Shown here: piece by piece, positions 4,523 through 31,220 of the stretch
How the letters are laid out: each line of letters starts with the position of its first letter
Position numbering within the stretch: position 1 is the first letter of the stretch
Assembly (NCBI GenBank): GCA_963705305.1
Contig: OY970067.1
Span: 5,581,312 to 5,645,311 of the forward strand
Direction: 5' to 3'
From: an uncultured Methylomirabilota bacterium
Lineage (GTDB): Bacteria > Methylomirabilota > Methylomirabilia > Methylomirabilales > 2-02-FULL-66-22
DNA: 64,000 bases
Position numbers and translations under genes: made by a program
Notes under the pieces: model-generated
Databases searched by the model: none
What the model saw: the letters and a program-made list of their open reading frames with translations, nothing else
What the model was told of the DNA's origin: nothing

Positions 4523-4551
4523 TTGACTCGGTTGGATTCATGAAGGAAAAT
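4523..4551 (+). promoter_or_regulatory. Putative promoter for fluoride riboswitch 1
   Basis: TTGACT-N17-GAAAAT, 13 nt before the aptamer. Confidence 0.45.
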
Positions 4552-4564
4552 ACACCAAAGAAAT

Positions 4565-4612
4565 GGCGATGGAGTTCGCGGGTCCCCGTCTGCGCGGGGT
4601 GATAACTCCTAC
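4565..4612 (+). ncRNA. Fluoride (crcB) riboswitch 1
   Basis: GGCGATGGAGTTCGC...CCCCG/CGGGG stem...TGATAACTCCTAC; GGAGT/ACTCC pseudoknot pairing. Confidence 0.85.
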
Positions 4613-4640
4613 TGGCAAAGCCAGTGGGGGTTTTTTATTT
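4605..4640 (+). terminator. Intrinsic terminator overlapping the 3' end of riboswitch 1 (expression platform)
   Basis: AACTCCTACTGGC-AAA-GCCAGTGGGGGTT hairpin followed by TTTTATTT. Confidence 0.85.
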
Positions 4641-4800
4641 CGGGGGTTTGACGGCAATTGCCATCGCCTCCCTCCAGACCGCAGGGCGCGAGGAGGACCG
4701 GTGGGCCGTGGCCGCCGGGGGTTCCGCCCCGCCGGACTACCGACCGCCGACTCCGGCCGAGAATCCGACGCCCGTGGACGCCTGAGCCGGGAGTCGCACT

Positions 4801-5214
4801 GTGCAGCGCAAGCAGCCGACGGTCCGCGATTTGAACAGTCTCGGCGTCCATTTCTACAGCGTCGAGGCCTATGACCTGGCCATCGTTCAGCTCGAGCAGG
4901 CGACCCGCCTGGCGCCGGACGTGGCCTCCATTCACTTCAACCTGGGGGGCGCCTACTACGGGAAGGGGCGTATCGAGGACGCGGAGCGCGAGTTCCAGGA
5001 GGCGCTTGATCTCGACCCCGGCCACGCGCGCGCCCACTGGTTCCACGGCCTCTGCCTGGAGCGGATGGCCCGTCTGGGCGAAGCCCTGGCGGAATTCCAC
5101 TGGGTGCGGGAGCATTCGCCGGGGACTCGCGAGGCACGATCCGCTCTCGAGGAGATCCAGGCCATCGCCGCCCTTTCCGGACGGGAAGGCCGCGGGGCCT
5201 CCCTTACCGGATAG
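4801..5214 (+). CDS. TPR-repeat protein
   Basis: TPR signatures LNSLGVHFY, HFNLGGAYY..G..EDAEREFQEALDLDP; GTG start. Confidence 0.85.
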   Translation: MQRKQPTVRDLNSLGVHFYSVEAYDLAIVQLEQATRLAPDVASIHFNLGGAYYGKGRIEDAEREFQEALDLDPGHARAHWFHGLCLERMARLGEALAEFHWVREHSPGTREARSALEEIQAIAALSGREGRGASLTG

Positions 5215-5216
5215 CC

Positions 5217-5798
5217 ATGAAGACGGACACTCCTTCATCTCCGACGACTCTGGAACGGGCCGGGTCCGTCCATCCGGATGGATCCCGGTTGCCGGCGGGG
5301 TCTTCGAGCCCGACCCTGAATTCTGAGAGCGTTTCCGGCGCTCTCAACGCCGCCCAAGTCCGCGCGGTGGCGGCCGCGCTCCGAACGTTGGAGTACGCAC
5401 TGGATGAGGTCGAGCGCCTGCTGGCCTCGACCACTTCAGGGGTCACGATCCGCTGGCGAGTCGACCTGACCGTCGAGGAGCACCGCCTCCTCCGGCAACT
5501 CACGGCCCAACTCCGGGGGCGGCTGGCCGTCGCCTGCCTCGACCTGGGAATCGGCGCCGACGAACGGTCTGTTCGAGGCGCGATCCGGGGAACCCTGGCG
5601 GTCCTATGGGCCACACTCGAGGACAGTCGGGCAGTGAGTCTCCGCAGCTACGGTCCGCTTCCGGCCGGGGCGGGCTTGGGCCTGGATGCGACGATGGCGG
5701 CGCTCGCGGCGGACGTTGGCCGGATCCTTCGGATAGTGGAAGGAACGGAAGCAGGAGCGCGGGGCCGAGACCGGGGTGCCGCCGGCGCGGAGGCCTGA
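5217..5798 (+). CDS. Hypothetical all-helical protein with an LRSYG motif
   Basis: Starts 2 nt after the TPR gene stop; amphipathic helices. Confidence 0.7.
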   Translation: MKTDTPSSPTTLERAGSVHPDGSRLPAGSSSPTLNSESVSGALNAAQVRAVAAALRTLEYALDEVERLLASTTSGVTIRWRVDLTVEEHRLLRQLTAQLRGRLAVACLDLGIGADERSVRGAIRGTLAVLWATLEDSRAVSLRSYGPLPAGAGLGLDATMAALAADVGRILRIVEGTEAGARGRDRGAAGAEA

Positions 5799-5802
5799 GG
5801 AG

Positions 5803-6597
5803 ATGGACTTCGGAACCTTCGACGGCTTCTGGCATAGGCTCGCCCGGACGCGTCTGCACATGCCCGAGGTGTCGGACCTCGAGGCTGTCCTGGGACAGGC
5901 GATGGGCGCGTGGCGAAGCTGCGTGGTTTGCAACCTTCTCTGGGAGCGGGCCTTTGACCTGACCTCGCGCTGGCAGCAGCTCCTCGCTTCTGACGCCGCC
6001 GCCCAGGCGGACTTCCTGTGCGGGCAGACTTGGTGCAACCGGCATGCCTGGTTCTTCAGCCAGATGATGGCCCCGGTGTCCCAGGCGCGCTTGCAGCGCC
6101 GACTGCACGAGGAGGTGGCGGCCCGGATTCGGGAGCACCTCCAGTCCATCCCGGAGCGTCCGATGGGCGGGGACGCCCGCACGATTCTTGAATCGCTCAT
6201 CGGCAGGCGTACCTGTCCCCTGTGCGACGACGAGTCCGCCTTGCTGACGCTGGTCCTGGCCGCGATAGTGCGCGGCCTGACCGCGGGATCGCTCCGGCCG
6301 GCCTTCGCCGCATCCGCCGGCTGCTGTCTCCCCCATCTGGCCGCCCTGCTGTCCCGCGTCGCCCACAGCGACACCGCCCGTTTCCTGTTGGAGGCGACCC
6401 AGGATCGCCTGGCACGGCTGACGGCGGAGTTGGACTACTACCAGGCGGAGAGCGAAAGCCGGCGGCGGCGGTACGAATCGGCCGCCGACGCCCCGGCCCG
6501 GGCCCTAGCCGCCTGGGCGGGCCTGCGGGACATGGTGCGGGATTGGGAGGGGACACCGACCGAGTCCCGCCCGCAGCCGGAAGGAGTTACGCCGTGA
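5803..6597 (+). CDS. DUF6062-like protein with duplicated CxxC...CxxH modules
   Basis: GAGGAG RBS; CVVC...CNRH and CPLC...CLPH. Confidence 0.75.
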   Translation: MDFGTFDGFWHRLARTRLHMPEVSDLEAVLGQAMGAWRSCVVCNLLWERAFDLTSRWQQLLASDAAAQADFLCGQTWCNRHAWFFSQMMAPVSQARLQRRLHEEVAARIREHLQSIPERPMGGDARTILESLIGRRTCPLCDDESALLTLVLAAIVRGLTAGSLRPAFAASAGCCLPHLAALLSRVAHSDTARFLLEATQDRLARLTAELDYYQAESESRRRRYESAADAPARALAAWAGLRDMVRDWEGTPTESRPQPEGVTP

Positions 6598-6679: not shown

Positions 6680-7936
6680 ATGAACGATCTCAACGGGAAG
6701 GCCGCTGTCGTCTCATCGGTTCCGGCCGATGACCGGTGGTTGAATCGCAATGTCGCGGGGATGGGGATCACCAGCCTGCTGAGCGATTGGGGACACGAGA
6801 TGGCCACGGCAATCCTCCCCGGGTTTCTGGCCGCCATCGGCGCTCCGGCCGCGGCCCTGGGCGTCATCGAAGGGGTGGCCGACGCCGTGTCCAGCTTCGT
6901 GAAACTCGGCGCCGGATGGTACACGGATCGGATCGGCCACCGGAAGGTCATCTGCGTAGGCGGTTATTTCCTGACGGGGGTCTCGCAGGCCATCTTTGCG
7001 TTTGCATACAGCTGGCCGCTGGTGCTCGCCGGCCGGACCCTCGGCTGGCTCGGTCGGGGCGTCCGCAGCCCTCTGCGGGACGCCATCCTGGCGGAGTCCG
7101 CGTCCGAGGAGGCGCGTGGGAAGGCCTTCGGCTTTCACCGGGCGGGCGACACGCTGGGCGCTGTTATTGGACCTCTCTGCGCCGTGGGGCTTCTGGCCCT
7201 GCTCCAGGGGCACGCCACCGGCGATCCCTCGTCACCCTTTCGTCTGGTATTCCTCCTGACCATCATCCCGGGTGTCGGATCGGCCCTGGCCTTCGGCACG
7301 GCGGTCCGCGAGCGGCGGCGCGCCCCGAACCGCGGGGTCCGGCTCTGGGCTACGATCCGTAGCCTGCCCCGGGCCTATCGGCGCTGGCTGGCGGGGGTGG
7401 GGATCTTCGGCATCGGGGACTTCGCGCACACCCTGATGATCCTGGCGGCCACGGAACTCCTCACCCCGGCGTACGGCGTGGTGGCGGCGGCCCAGATGGC
7501 TGCCCTGTTCTATGTGGTGCGGAATGTCCTGTACGCCGCCGCCTCTTACCCGATCGGCGCCTTGAGCGACCGCCTGGGTCGCCTCGGGATCCTGGTGCTC
7601 GGGTATGTCGTCGGCTCCCTGACGGCCGCCGGCCTCGTGGCCGCCTTCGCCTTCTCCTGGCGCCACCCCGTCTACCTTCTCGGGCTCTTCTGCCTGGGCG
7701 GAATCTACATCGCGGCCGAGGATGCCCTGGAGGGCGCCATGACCGCCGACTTCGTCCCTGCCGCGGAATGGCGGGGGATCGCGTACGGGGTGCTGGGGAC
7801 GGTCAACGGCGTCGGGGACCTGGCGGCCAGCGTGATCGTCGGCGTCCTCTGGACGGCGGTCTCGCCGGTCCTCGCATTCGCCTATGCGGCGGCGGCAATG
7901 GGCGCGGGCGCCCTGGTTGTCGCCCGCCCGTGCTGA
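6680..7936 (+). CDS. MFS transporter
   Basis: About 12 TM segments; GWYTDRIGHRK, GRGVRSPLRDA, RGKAFGFHRAGD, GALSDRLGR. Confidence 0.9.
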   Translation: MNDLNGKAAVVSSVPADDRWLNRNVAGMGITSLLSDWGHEMATAILPGFLAAIGAPAAALGVIEGVADAVSSFVKLGAGWYTDRIGHRKVICVGGYFLTGVSQAIFAFAYSWPLVLAGRTLGWLGRGVRSPLRDAILAESASEEARGKAFGFHRAGDTLGAVIGPLCAVGLLALLQGHATGDPSSPFRLVFLLTIIPGVGSALAFGTAVRERRRAPNRGVRLWATIRSLPRAYRRWLAGVGIFGIGDFAHTLMILAATELLTPAYGVVAAAQMAALFYVVRNVLYAAASYPIGALSDRLGRLGILVLGYVVGSLTAAGLVAAFAFSWRHPVYLLGLFCLGGIYIAAEDALEGAMTADFVPAAEWRGIAYGVLGTVNGVGDLAASVIVGVLWTAVSPVLAFAYAAAAMGAGALVVARPC

Positions 7937-7944
7937 GGACTGCG

Positions 7945-8958
7945 ATGCGCCTGGAAAATCTGGCGGCGGGATTGGACGATCTCTCGCGCAACCGGGAGGC
8001 GCTCGCCCTGTTGATCCTGCAGGGCGAACGGGCGGTCCCGGCCCTGGCGCGGATGCTCCTGGGGCCGCCCTCCTCTATCCCGGAGGCGCGCTGTCTCGCC
8101 GCGGAGGGCCTCGGATCGATCGGAGGGGAGGCGGCCGTCAGCGCCCTGATCCGGGTCCTCAGCCTGCACGATCCCCGACGGCTCGACCCGGTCCTCCGCC
8201 TGGCGGAGGAGGCGGTACAGAACCGGGCCGCAGAGCAGCTCGGCAGGATGGGAGACCGGCGGGCCGTCGAGCCGCTGCTGTACGGTCTGGCACAGGACGG
8301 GCTCCGCGAGGCGATGGGCGCGCTGGCCAGGCTCCGGGAGCCGCGGGCCATCCCCCACATCGTTCGGCGCCTGGAAGATCCGTGCGACCGCGCGGCAGCC
8401 GCGGACGCGCTGCTGGCATTCGGCAGCACGGCGGTTCCGGCCCTGACGGCGACACTGACCGAGCAGCACCCCTCTTCCGAGGATGAATCGCCCATGAGCG
8501 CGGAGCGACGCGCCGAGGCCGCACGCCTTCTCGGTACGCTGGGAGCTTCGCAGGCCCTGGAGGCGCTCCGGTCCCGCCTCGATGATCCGGCTGCGGCTGT
8601 CCGGCTCGAGGCCGGCCTCGCACTGGCGGCCCTCACCGGTGGCGACACACCCGATCGGGCGCTGGCGGTCATCGCACAGGGGCTGAACCATCCTGGCCCA
8701 CCGACGGCCCTGCGGTGCATGGACGCAGCTGTCGAGGCCGCCGACCGGAGTATTCCCCATCTCCTTTCTGTCGCTCCACCGAGACGGACCGCGGCAGTCG
8801 GTCCGCGCCGTCCGGGGGATGATGCGCTCCAGGTGAGCGTGATCGAGACCTTGGAGCGGATCGGCTCGGAAGCAAGCACACGGGCTATCGAGGAATTCCT
8901 TCACGACCGGAGCCCCCTCGTGCGCGAGCGAGCACAGCGGGCGCTGCGGCATCCTTGA
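7945..8958 (+). CDS. HEAT/PBS-lyase repeat protein
   Basis: Repeated AAEGLGSIG, AAEQLGRMGDRRAVEPLL, LDDPAAAVRLEA. Confidence 0.85.
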   Translation: MRLENLAAGLDDLSRNREALALLILQGERAVPALARMLLGPPSSIPEARCLAAEGLGSIGGEAAVSALIRVLSLHDPRRLDPVLRLAEEAVQNRAAEQLGRMGDRRAVEPLLYGLAQDGLREAMGALARLREPRAIPHIVRRLEDPCDRAAAADALLAFGSTAVPALTATLTEQHPSSEDESPMSAERRAEAARLLGTLGASQALEALRSRLDDPAAAVRLEAGLALAALTGGDTPDRALAVIAQGLNHPGPPTALRCMDAAVEAADRSIPHLLSVAPPRRTAAVGPRRPGDDALQVSVIETLERIGSEASTRAIEEFLHDRSPLVRERAQRALRHP

Positions 8959-12116: not shown

Positions 12117-13073
12117 ATGCCCCACATCGGGACGATCACCATGCGGAAAGGAGCCGGTAAGTGTCCGGCGCTCGGCTGGGTCGCCGTCGCAGCGGGGGGG
12201 CTGCTCTTGGCCCTCGTGGCCGCGCAGGGTTCGGGTGGGCAGGCGAGCGGCCGACCCGCAGTGCGCCTGGTGGTGTCTATCCCAACGCCACTCGAGGCGG
12301 CGATCTTCGGGCTCTTTGGCTTGGCCGCCCTCTTCGTCCTGTGGCTGCTGATGCCCCGACATCTCCGACATGGAAAGAAAGACCCGGATGCCATCGAGAT
12401 GGTCTACGAGAACCCGAAGATCTCGCCCTGGTTCACCGTCGGCATGCTGGTCCTGAGCGCCGCGCCCTTGGCGCTGGTGGGGTATCTCCTCTGGCGCGGG
12501 TGGCCGCCCTTTGAGAAGGGGGTCGCTCGCGTCTCCCTTGCGGCCGGATTTTCCGCTCCCGGGGCTCCCCTCCACCAAGGGAGCGTCGTGCCATATGCGT
12601 CGGAGCCATGGTTCAGCGGCGTGGTCACGGTTCTGGCACTGGTGGTGGGAGCGGGGTGTCTGGCGGCGACCCTCTGGATCCTCTTCGGCGATCGCCTGAT
12701 CGGGACGTGGAAAGGCCTGACGCCCCGGACCTCCGAGCCGCTGCTGGAGGCGATCGACGACAGCCTGGAGACCCTCCGACAAGAGTCGGATGCCCGCCGG
12801 GCGATCATCCGGTGCTATCGGCACTTCGAGCATGCCCTGACCCGACGGGGACTGCCGCGCGATCCCTGGGAAACCCCGACAGAGTTCATGCGGAAAGCCT
12901 TGGGCCGCCTCCCGCTCCCGCCGGAGATCGTGAAGGGTCTCATCGACCTGTTTCACCTGGCGCGCTTCAGCGATCACCCATTGGGGCCGAGGGAGCGCAA
13001 CGTCGCAGTGGACTCGCTGGTGGAAATCCGCACTGCACTGGAAGGGGAGACGGCCCATGCTTCCGCCGTCTGA
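12117..13073 (+). CDS. DUF4129-domain membrane protein
   Basis: N-terminal TM helices; C-terminal RRAIIRCY...ETPTEF...LF..ARFS. Confidence 0.8.
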   Translation: MPHIGTITMRKGAGKCPALGWVAVAAGGLLLALVAAQGSGGQASGRPAVRLVVSIPTPLEAAIFGLFGLAALFVLWLLMPRHLRHGKKDPDAIEMVYENPKISPWFTVGMLVLSAAPLALVGYLLWRGWPPFEKGVARVSLAAGFSAPGAPLHQGSVVPYASEPWFSGVVTVLALVVGAGCLAATLWILFGDRLIGTWKGLTPRTSEPLLEAIDDSLETLRQESDARRAIIRCYRHFEHALTRRGLPRDPWETPTEFMRKALGRLPLPPEIVKGLIDLFHLARFSDHPLGPRERNVAVDSLVEIRTALEGETAHASAV

Positions 13074-13539
13074 TCCGCGCTGGTGGAGATTCTTTCTGGG
13101 GTACCTCCTCTTCGCTGGGCTGCTAGCCCTGGCCCTGACGCCCCTCTATTTCTTGGCGGAGCCTACGCACCGACCGCTGGTCGTCCGCCTTGGCGCCACC
13201 CTGCTTGCCGTGAGCGTCTTGGTCCACCTCCGACGGTTCGTCCGGGCGGCGATCACGTCGCAACCCGCCTCGGCCTTCGACCGGGCGCTCCGGCCGCTGC
13301 CGCCCGAGCGCCACATCGCACCTCTCTTCCTGAAGCTCCGGAACGAGCTGCGGTTCAGCAGAGCCGATTTCGGGTACTTCCAGCGAAACCTCTGGCCTCG
13401 GATCCTCCGTTTGTCGCGGAGGCGGGTCGGGGGCTCCCTGTCAAAGGCGCCTGAGATGCCGCGGGGAGGATTCTTCCGGCGGGGGCCGTCGCTGGCTGCC
13501 TTTCGCCAGCTTATCTCGCAGATCGAGGAGCGTCCATGA
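13057..13539 (+). CDS. Hypothetical membrane protein of the MoxR module
   Basis: Two N-terminal TM helices; overlaps both neighbours. Confidence 0.7.
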   Translation: MLPPSDPRWWRFFLGYLLFAGLLALALTPLYFLAEPTHRPLVVRLGATLLAVSVLVHLRRFVRAAITSQPASAFDRALRPLPPERHIAPLFLKLRNELRFSRADFGYFQRNLWPRILRLSRRRVGGSLSKAPEMPRGGFFRRGPSLAAFRQLISQIEERP

Positions 13540-21668: not shown

Positions 21669-22619
21669 ATGACAAACCGGATCCTTTTCAACCTCTTGCA
21701 ACTCCTCGTCGTCGGGGGTTTTGCGCCGCTGGTCGCCGGCGTCCTCAGTCGCGGGAAGGAGATCGTCCAGTCCAAGCGCGGTCCCAGCATCTTCCAGCCG
21801 TACCGGGACCTGTGGAAGCTGTTTCACAAGGACGAGGTGGTCTCCGAGCATAGCTCGTGGATCTTTCGCTTCACGCCGTATCTGGTCTTCGTGACGCCGC
21901 TCTTCGTCACGCTGCTGATCCCCGTGCTGACCAGCTATCCGCTCTTCTTCGCCTTCATGGGGGATATGCTGGGCGGCGGGTTCGTCCTGGCCTTGGGCGG
22001 CTTCTTTGCCGCGTTGGCCGCCGTGGACACGGCCAATTCGTACGGCCCCGTCGGCGCCAGCCGCACGCGCATGGTCGGCTTCCTGGCCGAGCCGGTGTTC
22101 ATGATCGTCTTCTTCACCGTCTCGTTCGTCGCGAATTCCACCATTCCCTACATCGTCCAGCAGCGGTGGGTCACGCCCCTGGCCAATTTCTTCGCCCCGT
22201 CACACGTGCTGCTCCTGCTGGCGTTTCTCATGCTGATCCTCGCCGAAGGCGGGCGCATCCCTGTGGACAACCCGACCGGCCATTTCGAGCTGGCCATGAT
22301 CGACGAATCGAAAGGGCTCGAGTACTCGGGGCGCGGCGCGGCGCTGATGAAGTGGGGAGGCCAGATGAAGTTCTTCGTGCTGCTCTGCATCTTTCTCAAT
22401 GTGCTCGTGACCCCCTGGGGCCTGGCCGCCGGACAGGCATGGGGCGAGGTGCTGCTGGCGATTCCCCTGGTGCTGTTCAAGCTCCTCCTCCTGGCGGGGG
22501 TGCTGATCGTCATCGAATCCTCGCTGGCCAAGCTCCGGCTGTTTCGCATCGCCGAGTTCCTGGGCGCGGCCTTCATCACGTCGGTGCTGGCGATGACCGC
22601 CAGCATCTTTGCCTTCTGA
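21669..22619 (+). CDS. hyfC: HyfC/HycD-like (NuoH family) membrane subunit
   Basis: GPSIFQPYRDLWKLFHK; GRIPVDNP..HFELAMI; EYSG. Confidence 0.9.
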   Translation: MTNRILFNLLQLLVVGGFAPLVAGVLSRGKEIVQSKRGPSIFQPYRDLWKLFHKDEVVSEHSSWIFRFTPYLVFVTPLFVTLLIPVLTSYPLFFAFMGDMLGGGFVLALGGFFAALAAVDTANSYGPVGASRTRMVGFLAEPVFMIVFFTVSFVANSTIPYIVQQRWVTPLANFFAPSHVLLLLAFLMLILAEGGRIPVDNPTGHFELAMIDESKGLEYSGRGAALMKWGGQMKFFVLLCIFLNVLVTPWGLAAGQAWGEVLLAIPLVLFKLLLLAGVLIVIESSLAKLRLFRIAEFLGAAFITSVLAMTASIFAF

Positions 22620-22631
22620 CGAGGAGACCCC

Positions 22632-23324
22632 ATGTTCAGCGATCCCGCATCTGCGGCATGGCTCAGCCACCTCAACGCCCTTGCCGGCGGGCTGTTCCTA
22701 CTGGCCACCTTCGGCATGGTGGCCACGCGTCAGGTGCAGGCCTGCCTGCGCATTTTCATCGCCCAATCGCTCTGTCTCGCCGCGTCCGCGTTCCTCCTGA
22801 GCCTTGGACTCCAGTCGTGGCATGTCTTCGCCGTAGGGATGATCGACGTCATCAGCAAGCCGCTGGCAATCCCCTGGCTGCTCCGACGGACGGTGCGGGG
22901 AGAGGTGTACAGCCGGCGCGAGATCGACCAGCTGGTGAACATCCCCACGTCGCTGCTGATCGCCCTGGCGCTGGCCATCGCCGCGTATTTCTTGGCGCTG
23001 CCCCTCCTCACCGTGGCGGACGGGGCATACGTGCGCGTCAACCTGCCCATCGCCATCGCGGGCCTGCTGGTGGGCGCATACACCGCCTCCGTGCGGCGTG
23101 AGGCCGTCCCGCTGCTGCTGGGCTTGCTGGCGATGGAGAACTCGGCCTTCTTTGCGGGGATCGCCATCGCCCCGGGGCTGCCCCTGATCGCCGAGCTGGC
23201 CTTCACCTTCGACGTGCTGATCCTGTCGTTCATCGCGGGCGTATTGACCCGCACCATTCACCAGCACATCGGCACCACGGAGGTCGGCACGCTCGCCGCC
23301 CTCAGAGAGGGACCCAAACCATGA
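22632..23324 (+). CDS. hyfE: HyfE-like membrane subunit
   Basis: About 7 TM segments; KPLAIPWLL; LGLLAMENS. Confidence 0.85.
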   Translation: MFSDPASAAWLSHLNALAGGLFLLATFGMVATRQVQACLRIFIAQSLCLAASAFLLSLGLQSWHVFAVGMIDVISKPLAIPWLLRRTVRGEVYSRREIDQLVNIPTSLLIALALAIAAYFLALPLLTVADGAYVRVNLPIAIAGLLVGAYTASVRREAVPLLLGLLAMENSAFFAGIAIAPGLPLIAELAFTFDVLILSFIAGVLTRTIHQHIGTTEVGTLAALREGPKP

Positions 23325-24754
23325 GTCTGCCCATCATCTTGGGCTTGCCGCTCTTGGCGGCGGCGGTGTCCTGGCTGCCGTTCGGCTGGCGCGTGGTGGC
23401 ATCCGCCACACTCGCATCCGCCGTCGCGGTCCTGGTCCTGGCCGTCCGCGCGGCGCTGACCGTCGCCGGCGGCACGCCGCTCGTCGCCGTTCCGGACTGG
23501 ATCGCGCTGGATGGCTTCGGCGCCCTCCTGCTGGTCCTGGTTGCCGTGGTCGGGGCGACCGCGGCACTGTTTTCGTGGGGATACATGGGCCGGCACGATC
23601 ACACGGCTGGTCGGTTACGCTCGTACTACCTCCATTTCAACCTGTTCCTGTTCGCCCTCGTCGCCGCGCCGGTCGTGGCCGAGCCGAACCTGGCGTGGAT
23701 CGCCGTCGAGCTGACCGCGCTCTTCTCGGTGCTGCTGGTGGCCTTCGAGAACACGCACGAGGCGCTGGAGGCGGGCTGGAAGTACATCGCATTGATGTTC
23801 ATGGGGGCCGCGATCGCGCTGCTGGGCTTCCTCATTCTCTTCTGGGCCTTTCAGCAGGGTGGGGGCGGGCCGTATTCCTGGGCGACGCTGCGCGCCGCCG
23901 CCCCCCGGTTGCCGCCCACGCTGGTCGAGGCCGCCTTCCTGTTGATTCTCGTCGGCTTCGGCACCGAGGTGGGGTTCGTGCCGCTTCATACCTGGCTGCC
24001 CGACGCCCACAGCCAGGCCCCGTCCCCCGTCTGCGCCCTGCTCTCGGGGGTCAAGACCACGGTCTCCCTCTACGTGATCCTGCGCCTGGTGCCTTTGCTG
24101 CCGGAACGCCAGGCGCAGCCATGGCTCCTGGCCGTGGGGCTCATCTCCGTGGGTGCCGCGGCCTTTCTCCTGCTCCAGGTGGACGATTACAAGCGCCTGT
24201 TCGCCTTTTCCACCGTGGAGCACATGGGAATCATCGCCGCCGCCGCCGGGCTAGGCACGGCCGGCGGCTACTACGGGGCCATGTTCCAAATGCTCACCCA
24301 TTCCCTGGCCAAGTCCTTCTGCTTCCTCGCCTCCGGGGCGGCCTTGCTGGCGGTGCGGACTCGGCGGATCGGCGCCGTCCGCGGATTGGCCCGGACGTCG
24401 CCGCCGGCCGCTGTGGCCATGCTGTTTGGGGGGCTCGTGGTGGCCGGGGCGCCGCCGTTCGCCGTCTTCCTGAGCGAGCTCACGATCTTCAGGGCCGGCC
24501 TGGCGGCCGGGCGCTACGTCGTGACGGGGCTCCTGGCCCTCTTCATTGCCATCGCCTTCTTCGCCACGCTTTTGCACCTGAACCGCATGGTGTTCGGTCC
24601 TCCCGCGGCCAGTTCGACGGCGCCGCCGCGCCTACCCGGAAGCTGCTTCCTGGCGCTCATCCTGGCTGCGATGCCCCTGGCGCTGCTGGGCGTCTACCTC
24701 CCGGCGCCCATTCATCAACTCTTGCAGGCGGCCGCGGCCGCCCTGACGAGGTGA
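23321..24754 (+). CDS. hyfF: HyfF-like antiporter-family subunit
   Basis: WIAVELT, LEAGWKY, PLHTWLPDAHSQAP, KRLFAFSTVEHMG. Confidence 0.9.
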   Translation: MSLPIILGLPLLAAAVSWLPFGWRVVASATLASAVAVLVLAVRAALTVAGGTPLVAVPDWIALDGFGALLLVLVAVVGATAALFSWGYMGRHDHTAGRLRSYYLHFNLFLFALVAAPVVAEPNLAWIAVELTALFSVLLVAFENTHEALEAGWKYIALMFMGAAIALLGFLILFWAFQQGGGGPYSWATLRAAAPRLPPTLVEAAFLLILVGFGTEVGFVPLHTWLPDAHSQAPSPVCALLSGVKTTVSLYVILRLVPLLPERQAQPWLLAVGLISVGAAAFLLLQVDDYKRLFAFSTVEHMGIIAAAAGLGTAGGYYGAMFQMLTHSLAKSFCFLASGAALLAVRTRRIGAVRGLARTSPPAAVAMLFGGLVVAGAPPFAVFLSELTIFRAGLAAGRYVVTGLLALFIAIAFFATLLHLNRMVFGPPAASSTAPPRLPGSCFLALILAAMPLALLGVYLPAPIHQLLQAAAAALTR

Positions 24755-24761
24755 GCCGCCG

Positions 24762-26339
24762 ATGAACCTGACCGAGGTACAGACGCACATCGCCCGGCGC
24801 TGGTCGGGGCTGGCCGAGAGTCGGCTGGAGGGCTGCCCGCCCCTTTTGGAGGTGACCTCCGCGCCCCGGGCTCTCCCCGACATCTGCGGATGGCTCTTCA
24901 GCGACTTGGGGTACAGCTTCGCCGGCTTGATCGTCGAGGAGGGGCCGTCCCAGTGGGAGCTGCGCTACCCGTTCTACGGCGAGGGGGAGGCCGCCTGGGT
25001 CCACGTGCTCGTCCGCCGGCCGCTGGACGAGGCCAGGCTTCCCAGCATCAGCGAACCCGTCCACGCAGCGGACTGGCATGAGCGCGAGGCGGAGGACCTG
25101 TTCGGTCTGGTCTTCGAAGGCCATCCCCGGCTGGGGGACTTCGTGCTGCACGATGACCGGTGGCAGGAGGGCGTGGAGCCCATGCGCCGCTCCTTTTCCG
25201 CGCACCGACCCCTGGCGGAGCGCCACCCCAACGTCAAAAGGCGGCCGCGCCGGATTGTGCGGGCCCCGGGCGCGTTTGCGATGCCGATTGGGCCGGTGTT
25301 CGCCGGCCAGGCCGAGGCTGTCCACTTCCTGCTGGAAACGGTGGGGGAGGATGTGATCCGCGCCATCCCTCGCCTCTTCTACAAGTATCGCGGCATCGAG
25401 AAGCTTGCCGAGGGGCGTTCGCTGGAGGAGACCCTGCTGCTGGCGGAGCGGTTCTGCGCCACCTCCGCCTTCGCCCACGCCCTGGGGTTCTGCCTGGCCG
25501 TCGAGGCGATCGCCGGCGCGGCGGCGCCGGCGCGCGCCCAAGCCCTGCGTGTCATGCTGGCAGAGCTGGAGCGCTTCCGCCATCATGTGGCGGCGATCCA
25601 GGCGATCTGCGAATCCACGGCGCTCGCCGTCGCCGCCAGCCAGGCGGCCATGCTCGAAGAGGATCTGCTGCGGCTCAGCGGGGCGCTCTCCGGCCATCGA
25701 TACCTGTTCGGTCTGCTGACGCCCGGCGGGCTCACGCGCGACTTCGAAGACGCCGCCTGCCGGACGGCGGTCGGTGGCGTCCGGGTGGTCCTGAGCCGCC
25801 TGGTGGAGATTCAGCAGATGCTCCAGTTCTCCAGCAGCTTTCTCGACCGGATCGAGCAGGTCGGCATCACCCCGGAGAAGGAGGTGCGCCTGCACGGCCT
25901 CGTGGGTCCGGTGGCGCGCGCCGCCGGCGTGGCCCGCGATCTCCGACGGGCCCAGCCCTACTGCGGCTACGATGCGCTCCCCTTCGAGGTGCCCTGCGAG
26001 TCCGAGGGAGATGGCTACGCGCGACTTCGGGTGCTGTTCGCCGAGGCCGCCCAGTCGGTGCGGCTGATGGAGCAGGCGGCGGCCTTGCCGGGAGGGCCGG
26101 TGCTGGCCCCTGTACAGATGCGGCCAGGGGCCGCCATGGGCTGGACGGAGGCGCCTCGGGGCGCAGCGCTTCACTGGGTACGTATCGGGGAGGACGGCCA
26201 GGTGGCTCGCTACCGGATCATGCCGCCCTCGTTCGCGAACTGGCACGGATTTCACGTGGCCGCCGAGAACTTCGCCTTCCAGGACTTCCCCATCATCCTG
26301 GCCACCTTCGATCTGTCGGTGGCGGAAAACGACCGGTGA
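24762..26339 (+). CDS. HyfG/HycE-like large subunit without NiFe ligands (Ehr type)
   Basis: NuoC+NuoD architecture (WHEREAEDLFG..F.GHP; EAPRG); ERFCATSAFAH and C-terminal FDLSVAENDR lack both CxxC pairs. Confidence 0.88.
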   Translation: MNLTEVQTHIARRWSGLAESRLEGCPPLLEVTSAPRALPDICGWLFSDLGYSFAGLIVEEGPSQWELRYPFYGEGEAAWVHVLVRRPLDEARLPSISEPVHAADWHEREAEDLFGLVFEGHPRLGDFVLHDDRWQEGVEPMRRSFSAHRPLAERHPNVKRRPRRIVRAPGAFAMPIGPVFAGQAEAVHFLLETVGEDVIRAIPRLFYKYRGIEKLAEGRSLEETLLLAERFCATSAFAHALGFCLAVEAIAGAAAPARAQALRVMLAELERFRHHVAAIQAICESTALAVAASQAAMLEEDLLRLSGALSGHRYLFGLLTPGGLTRDFEDAACRTAVGGVRVVLSRLVEIQQMLQFSSSFLDRIEQVGITPEKEVRLHGLVGPVARAAGVARDLRRAQPYCGYDALPFEVPCESEGDGYARLRVLFAEAAQSVRLMEQAAALPGGPVLAPVQMRPGAAMGWTEAPRGAALHWVRIGEDGQVARYRIMPPSFANWHGFHVAAENFAFQDFPIILATFDLSVAENDR

Positions 26340-26358
26340 TTGTGAGAGAGGACGGGAC

Positions 26359-27129
26359 ATGACTCAATGGGTTCGCAAGGGGATCTCCAGCGGGGTGAAG
26401 ACCACGCGCTATCCTGATGCCGCAGATACGACGCCGGGCCTGTCCCCGGGACTGCCGCTGGGCGGCGGATATCCGGCGGCCGAGATTTCCTCGCTCGTCG
26501 ATCGCTGTCCGACCAAGGCGATCAGCGCGAGGGACGCTGGCGGCGTCGCCGTGGATTACCGTCGCTGCATTCACTGCTTCCGGTGCGCCCGCGGACCGGG
26601 CGCGCCGTTGGCCTGGACTCCGGGCTACGAGTGGGGTGCGCGGGGAGGCGAGGTCTCGCCCGATCCTCTGGGCGCCGCCTTCGAGCGGTCGCTGTACATT
26701 CTGGTCGTGGACGCCGGCGACTGCGGGGCCTGCCTGAGCGAGGTCAGACAGCTCAACAATCCCTACTACAACATGCACCGCCTCGGTTTCTTCATCACCC
26801 CGACCCCCCGGCTGGCGGATGTGCTCCTGGTGGTGGGTCCCGTGACCGACCACATGCGGCGCCCCCTGCAGAAGACGTATGAGGCGATGCCGACGCCGAA
26901 GCGGGTGATGGCCGTGGGGGCCTGCGCCCTCTCGGGCGGCGTCTTCGGACCGAGCTTCGTCTCGGGCGCGGGGGTGGCGGAAGTGCTGTCCGTCGACGTG
27001 GCGGTGCCAGGCTCGCCGCCCCCCCCACTGGCCATCCTGCATGGTCTGCTGGTCCTGGCCGGCCGGAGACCCCCCGCCTCGCTTCTGTCCCCGGCGCAGA
27101 CAGCGGGTACGGACGGAGGAGGCCGATGA
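26359..27129 (+). CDS. HyfI/HycG-like small subunit fused to an N-terminal ferredoxin-like domain
   Basis: CPTKAI...CIHCFRC, then DCGAC, ADVLLVVGPVT, VGACALSGG, PGSPPPP. Confidence 0.88.
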   Translation: MTQWVRKGISSGVKTTRYPDAADTTPGLSPGLPLGGGYPAAEISSLVDRCPTKAISARDAGGVAVDYRRCIHCFRCARGPGAPLAWTPGYEWGARGGEVSPDPLGAAFERSLYILVVDAGDCGACLSEVRQLNNPYYNMHRLGFFITPTPRLADVLLVVGPVTDHMRRPLQKTYEAMPTPKRVMAVGACALSGGVFGPSFVSGAGVAEVLSVDVAVPGSPPPPLAILHGLLVLAGRRPPASLLSPAQTAGTDGGGR

Positions 27130-29288
27130 ACACCCCTGCCGCCGCCTCGATCGGCCTGTTCCTCGCGCTGTGTGCCGCCGGCATTGGGCTGACGGCCGCG
27201 GTCCCGTCGCAGCGCGTCCCGCGGCTCCTGGCCTGGATCGGCGCGATCGCCTCGCTGCCGGTTCTCTGGGCCGGGGGTGCGGTGCTGGCAACCGGGCAGG
27301 TGCTCAGCATGCGCCTGTGGACGATCCCCGCGTGGGGACCGCTGATGTTACAGATGGACCGGCTGGGAGCCGTTTTCGTCATGGTAGCCGGGATGGTCTT
27401 TCTGCCCGTCTCGATCTTCTGTGCGGGCTATCTGCCTCGCTACCTGGGGCGATACAGCCTTCGGATGTTCGGCGGGATGTATCTGGCCCTGTATGCGTCC
27501 ATCGTGTTGATTTTCATCGCCGGCGACGTCCTCCTGTTCCTGTTCGCTTGGGAGGCGATGTCGATCCTTACGTATCTCCTCGTGAATTATGAGCACGAGG
27601 AGGAAGGACACTCCCAAGCCGGTTATGCCATGCTGGCCATCGGCGAGGCGGGAACGGTTGCCATAGCGCTGGGGCTCCTGCTGCTGGCGGTCGCGGCGGG
27701 CTCGTCGGAATTCGCCGCGATGAAGGCGGGCGCGGCTGTACTCGGTCCTGGTGCTCGATGGGGGGTGTTCCTGCTCACGTTCTTCGGATTCGGCGTCAAG
27801 GCCGGCCTGGTGCCCACGAACTCCTGGCTGCCACGCGCTCATCCCGTGGCGCCGGGAAATGTCTCGGCGCTCCTCTCAGGTGTGGTCTTGAACCTGGGGA
27901 TCTATGGAATTGTGCGCGTCAACCTCGACCTCTTGCCCACCAGCGCAATAGGAATGGGGCTCATTGCGCTGACCATCGGAACGATCTCTGCCGTTTTGGG
28001 TATTCTCTACGCCACCACAGAAAACGATCTCAAAGTGATGCTGGCGCACAGCTCGATCGAGAACATCGGCATCGTGACTGCCGGGCTGGGGGCAGGCTTT
28101 GTATTTACCGCCACCGGGCATTCGAGCTTGGCCGTCATCGCCCTTGTCGCTGCGCTCTACCACATGGTGAACCATTCGATCTACAAGTCGCTCCTCTTCC
28201 TCGGGACGGTAACTGTCGATTCGCAGACCGGAACGCGCGACCTGGACTTGCTCGGAGGGCTCATTCGTCGTATGCCATGGACGGCTCTGCTTTTCCTGGT
28301 CGGGGCACTCTCGATTGCGGCCATGCCGCCGTTCAACGGGTTTGTGAGCGAATGGCTGATGTTGCAGACGGTGCTGCGCAGCGTGGAGCTGTCATCCGTC
28401 GGCGCGAAGCTGGTGTTTGCCGTGTGCGGCGCGGGCCTGGCATTGACCGCCGCACTGGCAGTGACCTGTTTTGTGAAGGCGTTTGCCATGGGGTTCCTGG
28501 GCATGTCCCGCTCTCCTCAGGCTCGGCGGGCCACGGAAGCACGTGTGTCCGCTCTGGCGCCGATGGCGCTGCTGGCAGCGCTCTGCCTTGGATTGGGCGT
28601 GTTGCCGACCTACGTCATCCCGGTCCTCAGCGAGGCACTGGCGCCTCTGGCGCAAGCCAGCGCAGCGGACGCGCTGGTGCCTCCGTTCTTCGCCGGCAGT
28701 CCGGGACATGCGAGCCTCCCGCGAGGGTTTGCGGTGGAATTCCATGACCTGGGCGCCCAGGTGGGGCAGCACCTCCTGCCGGGCCGCGGGCTGGTGGTGC
28801 TTCATCGGGGCGGACCCGAAAATCCCGTGGTATTCGCCATGTCCACCTCGTACTCCCTGGTGGTCCTGGCACTGCTGCTGGGGCTGGTGTATGGCCTGGT
28901 GGGAGTCTGGGCGGCGCGACGCCGCCGGCTGGTCCGACGGGCGTGCTGGGACGGCGGCGTCGACCGCTTGCTGCCGGAAATGACGTACACCGCCACGGGC
29001 TTCTCGAATCCGGTGCGAGTCATTTTCGACGCCGTATTCCGCCCCACGATGGCCAGGGAGGGACCAGAGACCGTAGCCAGCCACTTCCGGATGGCCATCC
29101 AGAAGGGGCGCCAGGAGACCTATATCGTCGACCGGCTCTTCCTTCATCCGGTCCGGCGCGGGGCCATGGCGGTCGCCCGCCAGTTGGCGAGGATGCACAA
29201 CGGCCGAGTCAACGCGTATATCGGGTACGTCCTCGCCGCCCTGCTGCTGGTCTTGCTGGCGGCCTGGCTCGGAGGGGCCGCGGGCTGA
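27126..29288 (+). CDS. hyfB: HyfB-like antiporter-family subunit
   Basis: FAWEAMS, GVKAGLVP..WLPRAHP, AHSSIENIG, PPFNGFVSEW, MTYTATGFSNP. Confidence 0.9.
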   Translation: MNTPAAASIGLFLALCAAGIGLTAAVPSQRVPRLLAWIGAIASLPVLWAGGAVLATGQVLSMRLWTIPAWGPLMLQMDRLGAVFVMVAGMVFLPVSIFCAGYLPRYLGRYSLRMFGGMYLALYASIVLIFIAGDVLLFLFAWEAMSILTYLLVNYEHEEEGHSQAGYAMLAIGEAGTVAIALGLLLLAVAAGSSEFAAMKAGAAVLGPGARWGVFLLTFFGFGVKAGLVPTNSWLPRAHPVAPGNVSALLSGVVLNLGIYGIVRVNLDLLPTSAIGMGLIALTIGTISAVLGILYATTENDLKVMLAHSSIENIGIVTAGLGAGFVFTATGHSSLAVIALVAALYHMVNHSIYKSLLFLGTVTVDSQTGTRDLDLLGGLIRRMPWTALLFLVGALSIAAMPPFNGFVSEWLMLQTVLRSVELSSVGAKLVFAVCGAGLALTAALAVTCFVKAFAMGFLGMSRSPQARRATEARVSALAPMALLAALCLGLGVLPTYVIPVLSEALAPLAQASAADALVPPFFAGSPGHASLPRGFAVEFHDLGAQVGQHLLPGRGLVVLHRGGPENPVVFAMSTSYSLVVLALLLGLVYGLVGVWAARRRRLVRRACWDGGVDRLLPEMTYTATGFSNPVRVIFDAVFRPTMAREGPETVASHFRMAIQKGRQETYIVDRLFLHPVRRGAMAVARQLARMHNGRVNAYIGYVLAALLLVLLAAWLGGAAG

Positions 29289-29364
29289 GCCCGCGAGGCT
29301 TTGCGGGGCAGGGCGGCCGGTCGCGAAGTGCGCCCACGATCGCGGCCGGACAATCCGCGAAGGG

Positions 29365-29393
29365 TTGACATGCCCCAGACCGGCGCCTAAACT
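29365..29393 (+). promoter_or_regulatory. Promoter for fluoride riboswitch 4
   Basis: TTGACA-N17-TAAACT. Confidence 0.75.
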
Positions 29394-29403
29394 CTTGATG
29401 GGT

Positions 29404-29449
29404 GGGGATGGAGTCCCCCGTAACCGCCTCACCGGCTGATGACTCCTAC
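29404..29449 (+). ncRNA. Fluoride (crcB) riboswitch 4
   Basis: GGGGATGGAGTCCCCCGTAACCGCC...GGCTGATGACTCCTAC; closest of the four to consensus; compensatory P1 GGGG/CCCC. Confidence 0.92.
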
Positions 29450-29525
29450 CGAGGCCTTTGTCGGCCGGAGTTTCGACCTGTGAGGAAGAGCAGCTCCTGC
29501 AGGCGACGGCCTGGAGGAGTTTTTT

Positions 29526-31220
29526 ATGGACGCGATCAGGTCCGCACCGCCTGCATCCCTGGGAGGCCCGCTCCACCCCTCACCGCCATCGGCGCTGGAG
29601 GAGGTCGGGGCGATCTGCCGCCGGTTTCGCCTCGACGCCCTGCGGCCACAGCTCGACGCCTGCACCGCGCTCCTGCAGGATGGGGAGGTGGTCGACGTCG
29701 CCGTGGTGGGACGCTTCAAGGCCGGGAAGAGCTCCTTCCTGAACAGCGTCGTAGGCGGGGACTTGTTGCCGGTGGCCGCCCTGCCTCTCACGGCCGTGAT
29801 CACCCGCCTGCGCTATGGTGCGAGCGACCGCTCGGTGGTCAAACATTTGGATGGCACCGAGCGGGAGATCCCCGTGGACGACCTCCGCGAGTACGTCACG
29901 GAACAGCGGAACCCCGCCAACACCAAGGCCGTCGCCATGGTCGAGGTGGAGCTATCCTCCCTACGGCCCTACCAGGGGATCCGCTTCGTGGACACGCCGG
30001 GCCTGGGCAGCGTCTTCACCCACAACACCCGCGCCTCGATGGATTGGCTGCCGCGGATCGGGGCGGCGCTCCTTGCGATCAGCGCCGACCAGCCCCTGTC
30101 GGAGCATGATATGACCTTGCTGGCCGAGCTGGCCAAGCACACGCCGGAGATCTCGATCCTTCTCACCAAGGCGGATCTGGTGAGCTCCGGCGAGCTCGCG
30201 GACATCATCCGCTTCATCAGGGATCAGGTCGGCTCGACAATCCCCGGTGCGGTGCGCGTACTGCCTTTCTCCGTACGGCCCGGGTTCGAGCCCCAGCGTG
30301 CCGGGGTCCGGGAGTACCTGCTTGGGCGAGTTGCCGAGCACCACGAAGAGACCTCCAGGAGCATCCTCCGGTACAAACTCCAGCGGCTGACGGCTGACTG
30401 CCGGCAGTACCTGGAGGTGGCGCTGGCAGCGGCCTCGGCGGCGGCGGAGGCGCGGACGCGGCTGCAGGAAGCGCTCCGGCGGGAACGGACCCAGCTGGAG
30501 GCCGTGGGGAATGAGATCCGGATCGTGGCGCAGGACCTCAAGGGTCGGCTGATGGCAGACGCGCTGGAGCGATACGTCGCCCACACCCGCGAGCTCGTGG
30601 CGAGTTTGACGGCCGGGCTGCGGGCCGCCATGCCCGGGTGGAGAGGCGACCTGCGTAAGACGGCCGAACAGTTCGCCCAGTGGACCTATGAGGCCATCGA
30701 AGAACAGCTTGGCCCGCATTCCCACCAACACGGAGAGGAGCTGATCGCGCGGCACCTGACGTCCGCCCAGGCCAGCCTTTCCCGTGTGGTGCAGGCCTTC
30801 CAGGACCGATTGGCACAGGCGGTCGCGGAGGCGCTCCATACGCCATTCGCGGGGGCCCGCTTCGATGCCGCGGTCCGGTCCCCCGAGCGGCCGGACGTCC
30901 GGGTGAGCCGGGTCTTCGACATTCCGTTCGAGATCCTCTGGTTCCTGATCCCCATGACCGTCTTCCGCCCCCTGGTGAACCGGCACTTCGTCCGCAGGCT
31001 CCCCTGGGAGGTTGAGAAGAATCTCCACCGATTGGCGATGCAGTGGGCGCAAGCCATCGGAGCCTCCATCGACGATCTGGCCCGCCAGGCGCGGGAGTTC
31101 ATGTGGGAGGAGCTGGCCACCATCGACCGGTTGGTGTCCGAGAGCCAGGACCAGCGACCGGCCCTGGAGGGCGCCCTGGCGACGCTGGAGGCCGTCGGGC
31201 GAGCGGGTGAGGAGCAATAG
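29526..31220 (+). CDS. Bacterial dynamin-like GTPase
   Basis: G1 GRFKAGKS, G3 DTPG, G4 TKAD; helical C-terminal half with a hydrophobic paddle (FEILWFLIPM). Confidence 0.88.
   Translation: MDAIRSAPPASLGGPLHPSPPSALEEVGAICRRFRLDALRPQLDACTALLQDGEVVDVAVVGRFKAGKSSFLNSVVGGDLLPVAALPLTAVITRLRYGASDRSVVKHLDGTEREIPVDDLREYVTEQRNPANTKAVAMVEVELSSLRPYQGIRFVDTPGLGSVFTHNTRASMDWLPRIGAALLAISADQPLSEHDMTLLAELAKHTPEISILLTKADLVSSGELADIIRFIRDQVGSTIPGAVRVLPFSVRPGFEPQRAGVREYLLGRVAEHHEETSRSILRYKLQRLTADCRQYLEVALAAASAAAEARTRLQEALRRERTQLEAVGNEIRIVAQDLKGRLMADALERYVAHTRELVASLTAGLRAAMPGWRGDLRKTAEQFAQWTYEAIEEQLGPHSHQHGEELIARHLTSAQASLSRVVQAFQDRLAQAVAEALHTPFAGARFDAAVRSPERPDVRVSRVFDIPFEILWFLIPMTVFRPLVNRHFVRRLPWEVEKNLHRLAMQWAQAIGASIDDLARQAREFMWEELATIDRLVSESQDQRPALEGALATLEAVGRAGEEQ

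Follow-up and report, generated by a model that had tools for sequence, protein, structure and literature searches.

A probable fluoride regulon of four riboswitches and a mosaic of gene modules in a Methylomirabilota genome without Fluc or CLC-F-type CLC

The stretch of DNA analysed here, referred to as the window, is the final 64 kb of the genome of a soil or sediment bacterium of the phylum Methylomirabilota, assembled as one contig of 5,645,311 bases and 98.9% complete. It contains a block of + strand genes interspersed with four matches to the fluoride riboswitch family RF01734, here called R1 to R4, each preceded by a promoter-like site and followed by a gene or set of genes (operons 1 to 4). 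Within 4523-31220 we count 22 genes, of which 20 are intact and two are broken. An earlier note on this DNA had described about 24 co-oriented genes; the shared orientation holds, whereas the number is lower. The region is probably a fluoride regulon, in which four promoter-aptamer-platform units control a mosaic of gene modules in a lineage that has neither the exporter Fluc (CrcB) nor a CLC of the CLC-F type. Its kind, the fluoride-riboswitch regulon, is known; the instance found here is an exporter-less variant. The switches and their parts are as follows (nt, nucleotides; bp, base pairs; aa, amino acids; ORF, open reading frame).

4523..4551, + strand: promoter-like site P1 (TTGACT-N17-GAAAAT), from a consensus scan
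4556..4618, + strand: aptamer R1, a genus-specific variant with a 3-bp P1 stem and a GC-rich P3, aligning with 14 orthologous genus copies
4604..4640, + strand: predicted intrinsic terminator of R1, 98.3% of cells paired over 15 genus copies against 30-57% in slid controls
16733..16820, + strand: promoter-like site P2 (16733-16761) and aptamer R2 (24.0 bits), similar to the R3 cassette
19250..19338, + strand: promoter-like site P3 (19250-19278) and aptamer R3 (38.6 bits)
19321..19363, + strand: predicted alternative hairpin of R3, ACUCCU paired with the AGGAGGAGU box, followed by a UUG-initiated 23-codon ORF (folding)
29365..29455, + strand: promoter-like site P4 (TTGACA-N17-TAAACT; 29365-29393) and aptamer R4 (57.4 bits)
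29442..29527, + strand: predicted platform of R4, a long hairpin with the base ACUCCUACC:GGAGGAGU, then U6 and an AUG at 29526 (folding)

The gathering score of RF01734 is 34 bits. An Rfam scan of the whole window placed R4 (29395-29455) and R3 (19276-19338) above it, and a permissive scan of 600-nt stretches recovered R1 (4556-4618; 26.1 bits, E 4.2e-5) and R2 (16759-16820; E 2.1e-4) below it. The Rfam check that the earlier note had proposed for its four loci therefore upheld R4 and R3 at the family threshold and placed R1 and R2 beneath it. Searched at E<=1, the whole 5.65-Mb genome gave only these four matches, all on the + strand, with E values of 5.8e-15, 8.1e-9, 9.5e-5 (R1) and 4.7e-4 (R2). 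They lie where four aptamers had previously been noticed, the coordinates 4565, 16768, 19285 and 29404 being the first bases of the P1 stems. The core and pseudoknot strands, AUGGAGU in the P1 loop and UGAU-R-ACUCCUAC at the 3' end, are present in all four, R2 reading ACGGAGU. No fifth aptamer scored above 10.7 bits in the window with our own covariance model run with its filters off. The observation of four aptamers is real, and chance by no means accounts for it.

A TTGACx-N17 promoter-like site ends 2-5 nt 5' of every aptamer match, in agreement with the promoters that the earlier note had seen just before each aptamer. The consensus scan found seven such sites in 4300-20000 against 1.4 +/- 1.2 in shuffled sequence, and three around R4 against 1.5 +/- 1.3. 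Directly 5' of the -35 box of R2, at 16703-16732, lies a tandem duplication of the 15-nt unit TGCGTGGAATGGGTG, of which the R3 cassette has a single related copy.

RF01734-like matches at E<=0.01 were sought in 21 genomes of the genus, including this one. They occur in 15 of the 21, at 26 places in total, and only five of these 15 genomes have matches above gathering. Alignment A1 comprises 23 of the 26 places. L022 (G011) was dropped as a false positive by eye, and L012 (G013:C56:6570-6659) and L015 (G004:C81:1-73) were left out for their long P3 insert. The latter two are fluoride-aptamer matches with an unusual P3 insertion of ~25 nt, and one of them, at 38.9 bits, lies between a dynamin/DUF6062 pair and a TPR operon.

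By its anatomy R1 would be a textbook transcriptional ON switch, with a ligand response expected from family membership. Its terminator is a 13-bp helix at 4604-4632 followed by a U-run, and the 5' arm of this helix is the aptamer's own 3' pseudoknot strand, ACUCCUAC; when the pseudoknot strands are withheld from the fold, the terminator shrinks to a 6-bp stub. Fluoride would lock ACUCCUAC into the aptamer pseudoknot and so block the overlapping terminator. The same design (TTGACg promoter, 3-bp P1, AUGGAGUU loop, GC-rich P3, UGAU-R-ACUCCUAC, and an overlapping hairpin with U-run) occurs at 15 places from 14 species of the genus. Over these 15 copies 95.1% of aptamer cells are paired, against 49-58% in slid controls. 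No pair has changed on both sides among the copies, which are too alike for covariation, so that support for the class comes from conservation and likeness to RF01734 rather than from covariation.

R4 is built differently. Folded without ligand, 29438-29524 reaches a minimum energy of -42.8 kcal/mol with ACUCCUACC paired to the Shine-Dalgarno sequence GGAGGAGU; the same strand that serves the pseudoknot would close the base of the long hairpin and bury the ribosome-binding site beside the U-tract. If the pseudoknot strand is kept out of the fold, two forms of nearly equal energy are available: a compact terminator (-32.5 kcal/mol), and an open form (-31.7 kcal/mol) that arises earlier in transcription and exposes the ribosome-binding site. 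Because the compact terminator is still allowed beside the open form, the ON state is kinetic at best, and an ON switch acting through folding kinetics is plausible for R4.

The ACUCCU of R2 and R3 finds its partner in a G-rich box, resembling a Shine-Dalgarno sequence, that lies 25-30 nt further 3'; after this box come a start codon and a short ORF, 21 or 23 codons in length. As the enolase of operon 3 starts at ATG 19765, the leader of R3 is ~430 nt long. Translational and/or Rho-type control appears the likely mode for R3, in which the aptamer strand would pair with the Shine-Dalgarno-like box of the short upstream ORF. Of the competing helix that had been assigned to each switch, the terminator of R1 and the Shine-Dalgarno sequestration of R4 therefore stand, whereas R2 and R3 have a hairpin and no terminator. 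R2 and R3 are paralogous cassettes whose similarity takes in sequence 5' of the -35 box and reaches through the aptamer, and the core of R2 has a C where 22 of the 23 aligned genus aptamers have T (U). R2 is the weakest candidate because it combines the lowest score with this core substitution, no terminator and broken genes behind it; it is most likely a relic, duplicated from the R3 cassette and probably decaying. Taken together, four sigma-70-type promoters with their aptamers and platforms would form same-strand units that are switched on as cytoplasmic fluoride rises, a response that is predicted from sequence for all four switches.

Genes were called from Pfam and NCBIfam matches, codon-position GC and homology within the genus; codon-position GC gave no convincing minus-strand ORF in the block. 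The ORFs at 16296-16598, 16411-16749, 19518-19748, 21187-21600 and 21257-21550 were not counted, having no family match and weak codon-position GC. The ORF at 33132-34412 (+ strand, 427 aa) was rejected in favour of minus-strand ABC-transporter genes at 33291-34025 and 34025-35122, which have a third-codon-position GC (GC3) of 0.85 and clear family matches. As that ORF is spurious, the same-strand block ends at 33081. Operon 1 (4801-16299) consists of 12 genes.

4801..5214, + strand: small TPR protein, gene 1 of operon 1 (TPR_16, 55.8 bits; 60-75% identical orthologues in genus islands)
5217..5798, + strand: hypothetical 193-aa protein with no family match; orthologues in three genus loci
5776..6597, + strand: DUF6062-like, predicted all-helical protein with CxxC, C-x2-H, CxxC and C-x2-H motifs (DUF6062, 23 bits; predicted local distance difference test score, pLDDT, 81)
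6680..7936, + strand: MFS transporter (MFS_1, 98.7 bits; 10 hydrophobic segments)
7942..8958, + strand: HEAT-repeat protein, start revised from 7768 (HEAT_2, 83.4 bits)
8977-10512 and 10509-12011, + strand: two adjacent MutS-domain-V ATPases (MutS_V, 72 and 74 bits)
12117..16299, + strand: membrane/AAA+ module of a DUF4129 membrane protein, a 160-aa membrane protein, a MoxR AAA+ ATPase, a DUF58 protein and a 203-aa membrane protein

The MFS transporter is the simplest candidate for an exporter of fluoride or other anions. In the MutS-like pair only domain V is matched and no mismatch-binding domains were detected; scores against the NCBIfam cut-offs for MutS (85.6 against 480), MutS2 (68.6 against 400) and the KamC-like family (73 against 300) all fall far below. 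The MoxR ATPase matches AAA_3 at 214 bits and AAA_lid_2 at 71.9 bits, and the order of the DUF4129/MoxR/DUF58 module is kept in four genus islands.

The DUF6062-like protein scores 23 bits against PF19538, for which the gathering score is 27, while a genus paralogue reaches 68.6 bits. It has an atlas score of 0.95 to three DUF6062 clusters, with which it has its invariant Cys/His columns in common (alignments A3 and A6). A Foldseek search with the predicted fold gave no PDB match at E<=0.001, and the best VIA-align Z score, 6.0 over 69 residues, is within noise for helical proteins. Some 5 kb before the window, at G000:C1:5575513-5576364 on the minus strand, another DUF6062-like gene (profile E 2e-59) belongs to a minus-strand cluster with no riboswitch match nearby. 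DUF6062-like domains are also found in three to six tandem or clustered copies, some of them partial, in the fluoride islands of G013:C56, G009:C300, G017:C6, G004:C226 and G065:C26.

Operon 2, behind R2, consists of two broken genes.

17255..17593, + strand: cytidylate-kinase-like remnant, matching only profile positions 82-175 of 176 in any frame
17692..19188, + strand: AAA ATPase gene with two frameshifts, near 18440-18480 and near 18674 (three-frame reading)

Full-length cytidylate-kinase-like (PF13189) paralogues number at least seven in the genome, one of them in the window at 53069-53620 on the minus strand; the remnant is an additional copy. That every one of the four switches works, that operon 2 has two functional genes and that assembly errors merely mimic decay there is unlikely. 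In favour of this reading, this stretch of the single 5.6-Mb contig has many G/C homopolymers, the two frameshifts of the AAA gene compensate each other so that the frame is restored, and the orthologue in G013 is an intact open frame of 503 aa with 78% DNA identity. The other 20 island genes are nevertheless unbroken, whereas the AAA gene of this 2.4-kb operon carries two frameshifts, and the kinase-like gene has no detectable N-terminal half in all three frames. Assembly error would also leave aside the core substitution of R2 and its lack of a platform, as well as the G013 orthologue, whose contig has no riboswitch match at E<=0.01. Short-read contigs (Logan) agree with the assembly and contain no indels over 16850-17185, 17325-17582 and 18753-19400; the frameshift sites of the AAA gene lie outside these stretches, and the contigs are not independent evidence because they possibly derive from the same sample. 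Decay of R2 and its operon remains the preferred reading.

Operon 3, behind R3, encodes an enolase and a membrane complex.

19765..21033, + strand: island-type second enolase, start revised to ATG 19765 behind AAGGAG (TIGR01060, 646 bits, cut-off 300)
21669..29288, + strand: six-subunit Ehr/Hyf-like membrane complex (HyfC/NuoH-like, HyfE-like, HyfF-like, NuoC-D fusion, NuoB-like and HyfB-like subunits)

Both Pfam enolase domains are present in the island enolase, which is 61.5% identical to the genome's other enolase and 76-83% identical to enolases beside dynamin-like genes in metagenome-assembled genomes (MAGs) labelled Phycisphaerae, Nitrospirales, Spirochaetes, Holophagaceae and Goldiibacteriota. 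Thirty-seven enolases were placed in a quick maximum-likelihood tree, with support from the Shimodaira-Hasegawa-like approximate likelihood ratio test (SH-aLRT) only. In this tree the five genus island copies cluster with the cross-phylum ones (SH-aLRT 100), apart from 10 genus housekeeping copies. The island enzyme thus appears to be a separate isozyme belonging to a cross-phylum clade, as would be expected of the replacement enolase that had been suggested. It would replace or supplement the fluoride-sensitive housekeeping enzyme.

Ehr complexes are energy-converting-hydrogenase-related relatives of group 4 hydrogenases and complex I that lack the NiFe site. The 525-aa NuoC-D-like subunit of operon 3 has eight cysteines and no CxxC, its N-terminal motif being C-A-T-S and its C-terminus having no cysteine. 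As both NiFe CxxC motifs are missing, the Ehr label fits and a working [NiFe] hydrogenase is excluded. Of the four cluster cysteines expected in the NuoB-like subunit three remain, and its N-terminus has a ferredoxin-like motif, C...CxxCxxC. Judging by family and context, the complex would translocate ions, probably for pH or ion homeostasis. The enolase is separated from the first Ehr gene by a 635-nt spacer (21034-21668) with no confident gene and no aptamer; in the Acidobacteriota loci L125 and L134 the equivalent spacer holds a fluoride riboswitch match.

Operon 4, behind R4, begins with a dynamin-like gene.

29526..31220, + strand: dynamin-like GTPase, 564 aa (Dynamin_N, 77.8 bits, cut-off 27)
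31468..33081, + strand: Na/Pi cotransporter-PhoU fusion (Na_Pi_cotrans, 194.9 bits)

The G1, G3 and G4 motifs of the GTPase (GKS, DTPG and TKxD) are invariant in family alignment A4, and its best solved relatives are 5owv, 2j68 and IniA (6j72), with profile E values of 1e-16 to 1e-19. No strong terminator is found in the 248-nt gap between the two genes. As the transporter also adjoins the dynamin orthologue in G016, it may be the last gene of operon 4. Two further genes lie outside the island. A DAHP synthase gene (AroG/H type, 491 bits), whose product consumes phosphoenolpyruvate, is found just 5' of it at 1280-2356 (+ strand), not behind a riboswitch; chorismate mutase is among the genes linked to fluoride riboswitches (PMC11139923). 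Near the contig end, a tRNA gene at 63406-63479 (+ strand, Rfam 70.9 bits) is the sole other Rfam match in the window.

The exporters typical of such regulons are missing. Profile searches gave no match in the genome to CrcB/Fluc (PF02537) or to DUF190. Among the 20 other genomes of the genus one has a CrcB match, so that 20 of the 21 are without. This single match (G014:C7:2236-2659; loci L010 and L137) lies behind a 54-bit riboswitch in a 76%-complete MAG and is spread across two reading frames; gene decay, misassembly or a contaminating contig may account for it. The same search found CrcB in 88 of 159, 14 of 21 and 10 of 20 genomes of three sister families (114 of 251 in the phylum), and the profile therefore works in this phylum.

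Four CLC genes are present in the genome, none of them near a riboswitch. CLC-F proteins are recognised by two published markers (PMC4113899): the serine of helix D is replaced by Asn or Met, and the second residue after the gating Glu is Thr or Val. All four CLCs have E-G-P where the solved CLC-F chain 6d0j has E-G-V. One of the four, a 485-aa CLC, was aligned to 6d0j to read its helix-D position; it has neither Asn nor Met there (6d0j has Met) and scores 69 bits to CLC-F against 75 to ClcA. Encoded at genome positions 5424265-5425719 on the minus strand, this protein has no CBS domains and no canonical helix-D serine, and keeps E-G-P and a GxFxP-like motif. By the published markers it appears to be neither a canonical CLC nor a CLC-F.

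Within the genus, island modules are found beside riboswitch matches in G009, G013, G015, G016 and G017, with 42-92% protein identity and in different orders and behind different switches. The enolase of G009 follows the MFS gene inside the TPR operon, and a separate riboswitch match lies ~1.4 kb 5' of its MutS pair. Behind a riboswitch in G013, G015 and G016, paralogues of the dynamin and DUF6062 genes come first, and in G016 the dynamin orthologue and Na/Pi transporter close the block. At 12 or more of the 22 genus riboswitch places outside our genome, the first gene downstream is dynamin-like (six) or DUF6062-like (six).

To look beyond the genus, the best 80 of 501 relatives of the dynamin-like protein were fetched by similarity of that protein alone, and 77 of them, from many phyla, lie outside the genus. 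With our own model at E<=1e-3, a same-strand riboswitch match was found upstream at 66 of these 77 loci, within 400 nt at 26, and none was found at 11; Rfam at gathering confirmed 15 of the 16 dynamin loci checked. At least two riboswitch matches occur at 24 of the 77 loci and at least three at eight, and multi-switch islands are therefore common. Neighbouring genes include Na/H exchangers (29), DUF190 (26), enolase (~20), CrcB (19), MFS transporters (7-8) and universal stress proteins (5), counts that are approximate owing to clustering and to a simple gene caller that took opposite-strand ORFs at some loci. Elsewhere the MutS-like pair (L072 and L113), the MoxR/DUF58/DUF4129 module (L131, an actinobacterial MAG) and Ehr subunits (L125 and L134) each have a riboswitch match of their own; among the 80 dynamin loci, Ehr subunits are found at two, the MutS pair at two and MoxR at one.

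The DUF6062-like family is present in 61 of the 251 genomes of the phylum. At 14 of 16 DUF6062-like loci from other families of the phylum, RF01734 exceeds its gathering score 5' of the gene and on its strand, and in several genomes of these families CrcB lies 0.05-2.4 kb from the DUF6062-like gene on the same contig. The dynamin-like GTPase and the DUF6062-like family are strongly linked to fluoride riboswitches, a linkage that is new here. Literature searches returned nothing joining the fluoride riboswitch with dynamin and nothing on DUF6062, and an earlier listing of either in the gene census of Baker 2012 is possible. Searches on the fluoride riboswitch with GTPase gave nothing relevant by title, those on riboswitch and fluoride with MoxR an incidental mention at most, and none of the papers listed for fluoride or riboswitch with the names of the phylum mentions 'riboswitch'.

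The island can be divided into six modules: (i) the TPR, 193-aa, DUF6062-like, MFS and HEAT proteins; (ii) the pair of MutS-domain-V ATPases; (iii) DUF4129, MoxR and DUF58 with two small membrane proteins; (iv) what would be a dedicated island-type enolase; (v) the Ehr complex, hydrogenase-4-like and NiFe-less; and (vi) the dynamin-like GTPase, perhaps with the Na/Pi transporter. As these are re-sorted among switches between species and occur singly elsewhere, the island is a co-regulated mosaic of independently mobile, individually riboswitch-controlled modules and not one fixed machine. The earlier note had instead seen one integrated fluoride-stress system. That some 24 gene products form such a machine, with parts that cooperate physically or in a fixed pathway, is improbable. 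The genes do lie contiguously on one strand behind the same kind of sensor, and several species of the genus have the set in full. The order of the modules and the riboswitch that each follows vary by species all the same, as the enolase and MutS pair of G009 and the leading dynamin genes of G013, G015 and G016 illustrate. In other phyla single modules are found behind a riboswitch of their own, among genes for CrcB, DUF190 and Na/H exchangers, and the low counts of Ehr, the MutS pair and MoxR at dynamin loci also argue against a fixed assembly.

The gene classes that the earlier note had named (enolase, Ehr, two MutS domain-V proteins, MoxR, DUF58, DUF4129, MFS and dynamin-like GTPase) are borne out by Pfam and NCBIfam, and the gene-neighbourhood survey that it had proposed finds the set conserved in the genus and each module riboswitch-linked in other phyla, clearly contrary to the refuting outcome that it had named, a gene set not accompanied by fluoride riboswitches in other genomes. 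Multi-riboswitch islands are common, and associations with enolase, formate hydrogen lyase, mutS and phosphate-transporter genes are already in print. The earlier note had missed the absence of CrcB/Fluc and of a CLC-F-type CLC, the DUF6062-like core member and the possible Na/Pi gene of operon 4.

Variant ligand specificity occurs in other riboswitch classes, and the R1 class, with Rfam scores of 21-34 bits that are mostly below gathering and a junction and P3 that depart from the family consensus, might be thought to place operon 1 in the regulon of another ligand; this is very improbable, since the conserved core (AUGGAGU ... UGAU-R-ACUCCUAC) and pseudoknot complementarity are intact in 15 of 15 copies and the class controls dynamin-like and DUF6062-like families just as canonical, above-threshold RF01734 does in other lineages.

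Several points weigh against a fluoride regulon of four working switches and accessory modules. R1 and R2 fall under the Rfam cut-off, the R1 class shows no compensatory base change, the R4 fold with its strand withheld still permits a terminator, and no recognisable terminator or U-tract accompanies the hairpins of R2 and R3. Ligand binding and switching of expression are predictions for all four switches, and assembly errors could account for the frameshifts of operon 2. Putative roles of the MFS, Ehr, dynamin-like and MutS-like proteins are deduced from family and context only. The absence of CrcB rests on profile searches of MAGs, our own genome being a single, nearly complete contig.

With Fluc apparently lost from this lineage and no CLC of the CLC-F type in its place, tolerance of fluoride must rest on the accessory modules. 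We tentatively propose, as a possibility short of an even chance, that the genus survives fluoride by an exporter-independent or new-exporter response built from such modules. The dynamin-like and DUF6062-like proteins would be its core cross-phylum factors, the MFS transporter or Ehr complex might offer a new route for fluoride removal or for dealing with the proton load, and an intrinsically fluoride-tolerant island enolase would travel with the islands. Riboswitch links beyond the two exporters have reportedly been known since 2010-2012. The excerpts of PMC2864571, PMC11139923 and PMC9971707 describe the non-exporter genes by association only. As Fluc and CLC-F are absent here, the contribution of the accessory genes can be studied unmasked, which makes a lineage without a dominant exporter a natural test case for the other fluoride-response genes. 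Two protein families stand out for testing, the dynamin-like GTPase (66 of 77 loci) and the DUF6062-like Cys/His protein (14 of 16). The island enolase clade could be a fluoride-tolerant isozyme, of relevance to engineering microbes against fluoride released from organofluorines, a theme of PMC11139923. As the clade-specific aptamer variant scores below gathering, routine annotation misses the R1 class.

Fluoride exporters are the commonest proteins encoded in fluoride-riboswitch operons (PMC11139923). Other genes listed there are those for Na/H antiporters, pyrophosphatase, HAD phosphatases, enolase and formate hydrogen lyase; the crcB motif had been placed upstream of mutS, K+/Cl- transport and formate hydrogen lyase genes (PMC2864571), and phosphate transporters have been added to the associations (PMC9971707). 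With such RF01734 regulons the island shares the aptamer family, the ON-switch terminator design and the associations with enolase, formate hydrogen lyase, mutS-like and phosphate-transporter genes. It differs in having no CrcB/Fluc and no CLC-F-type CLC, four switches within 25 kb, a clade-specific aptamer variant under the Rfam cut-off, and prominent dynamin-like and DUF6062-like genes.

The individual modules likewise have known counterparts. Like other Ehr complexes, that of operon 3 has Hyf-like membrane, NuoB-like and NuoC-D-like subunits and lacks the NiFe CxxC motifs; unlike them it lies behind a fluoride riboswitch with an enolase paralogue, and its NuoB-like subunit carries the extra ferredoxin-like motif. 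MoxR-DUF58(-DUF4129) chaperone modules similarly combine AAA_3, DUF58, DUF4129 and small membrane partners in one block, whereas the module here, like that of the one actinobacterial MAG, is found behind a riboswitch. The GTPase of operon 4 shares Dynamin_N, the G motifs and a long helical C-terminal part with bacterial dynamin-like proteins. It is shorter, at 564 aa, and a simple hydropathy scan found no hydrophobic paddle segment in it; it appears to represent a distinct family, predicted to be under fluoride-riboswitch control across many phyla.

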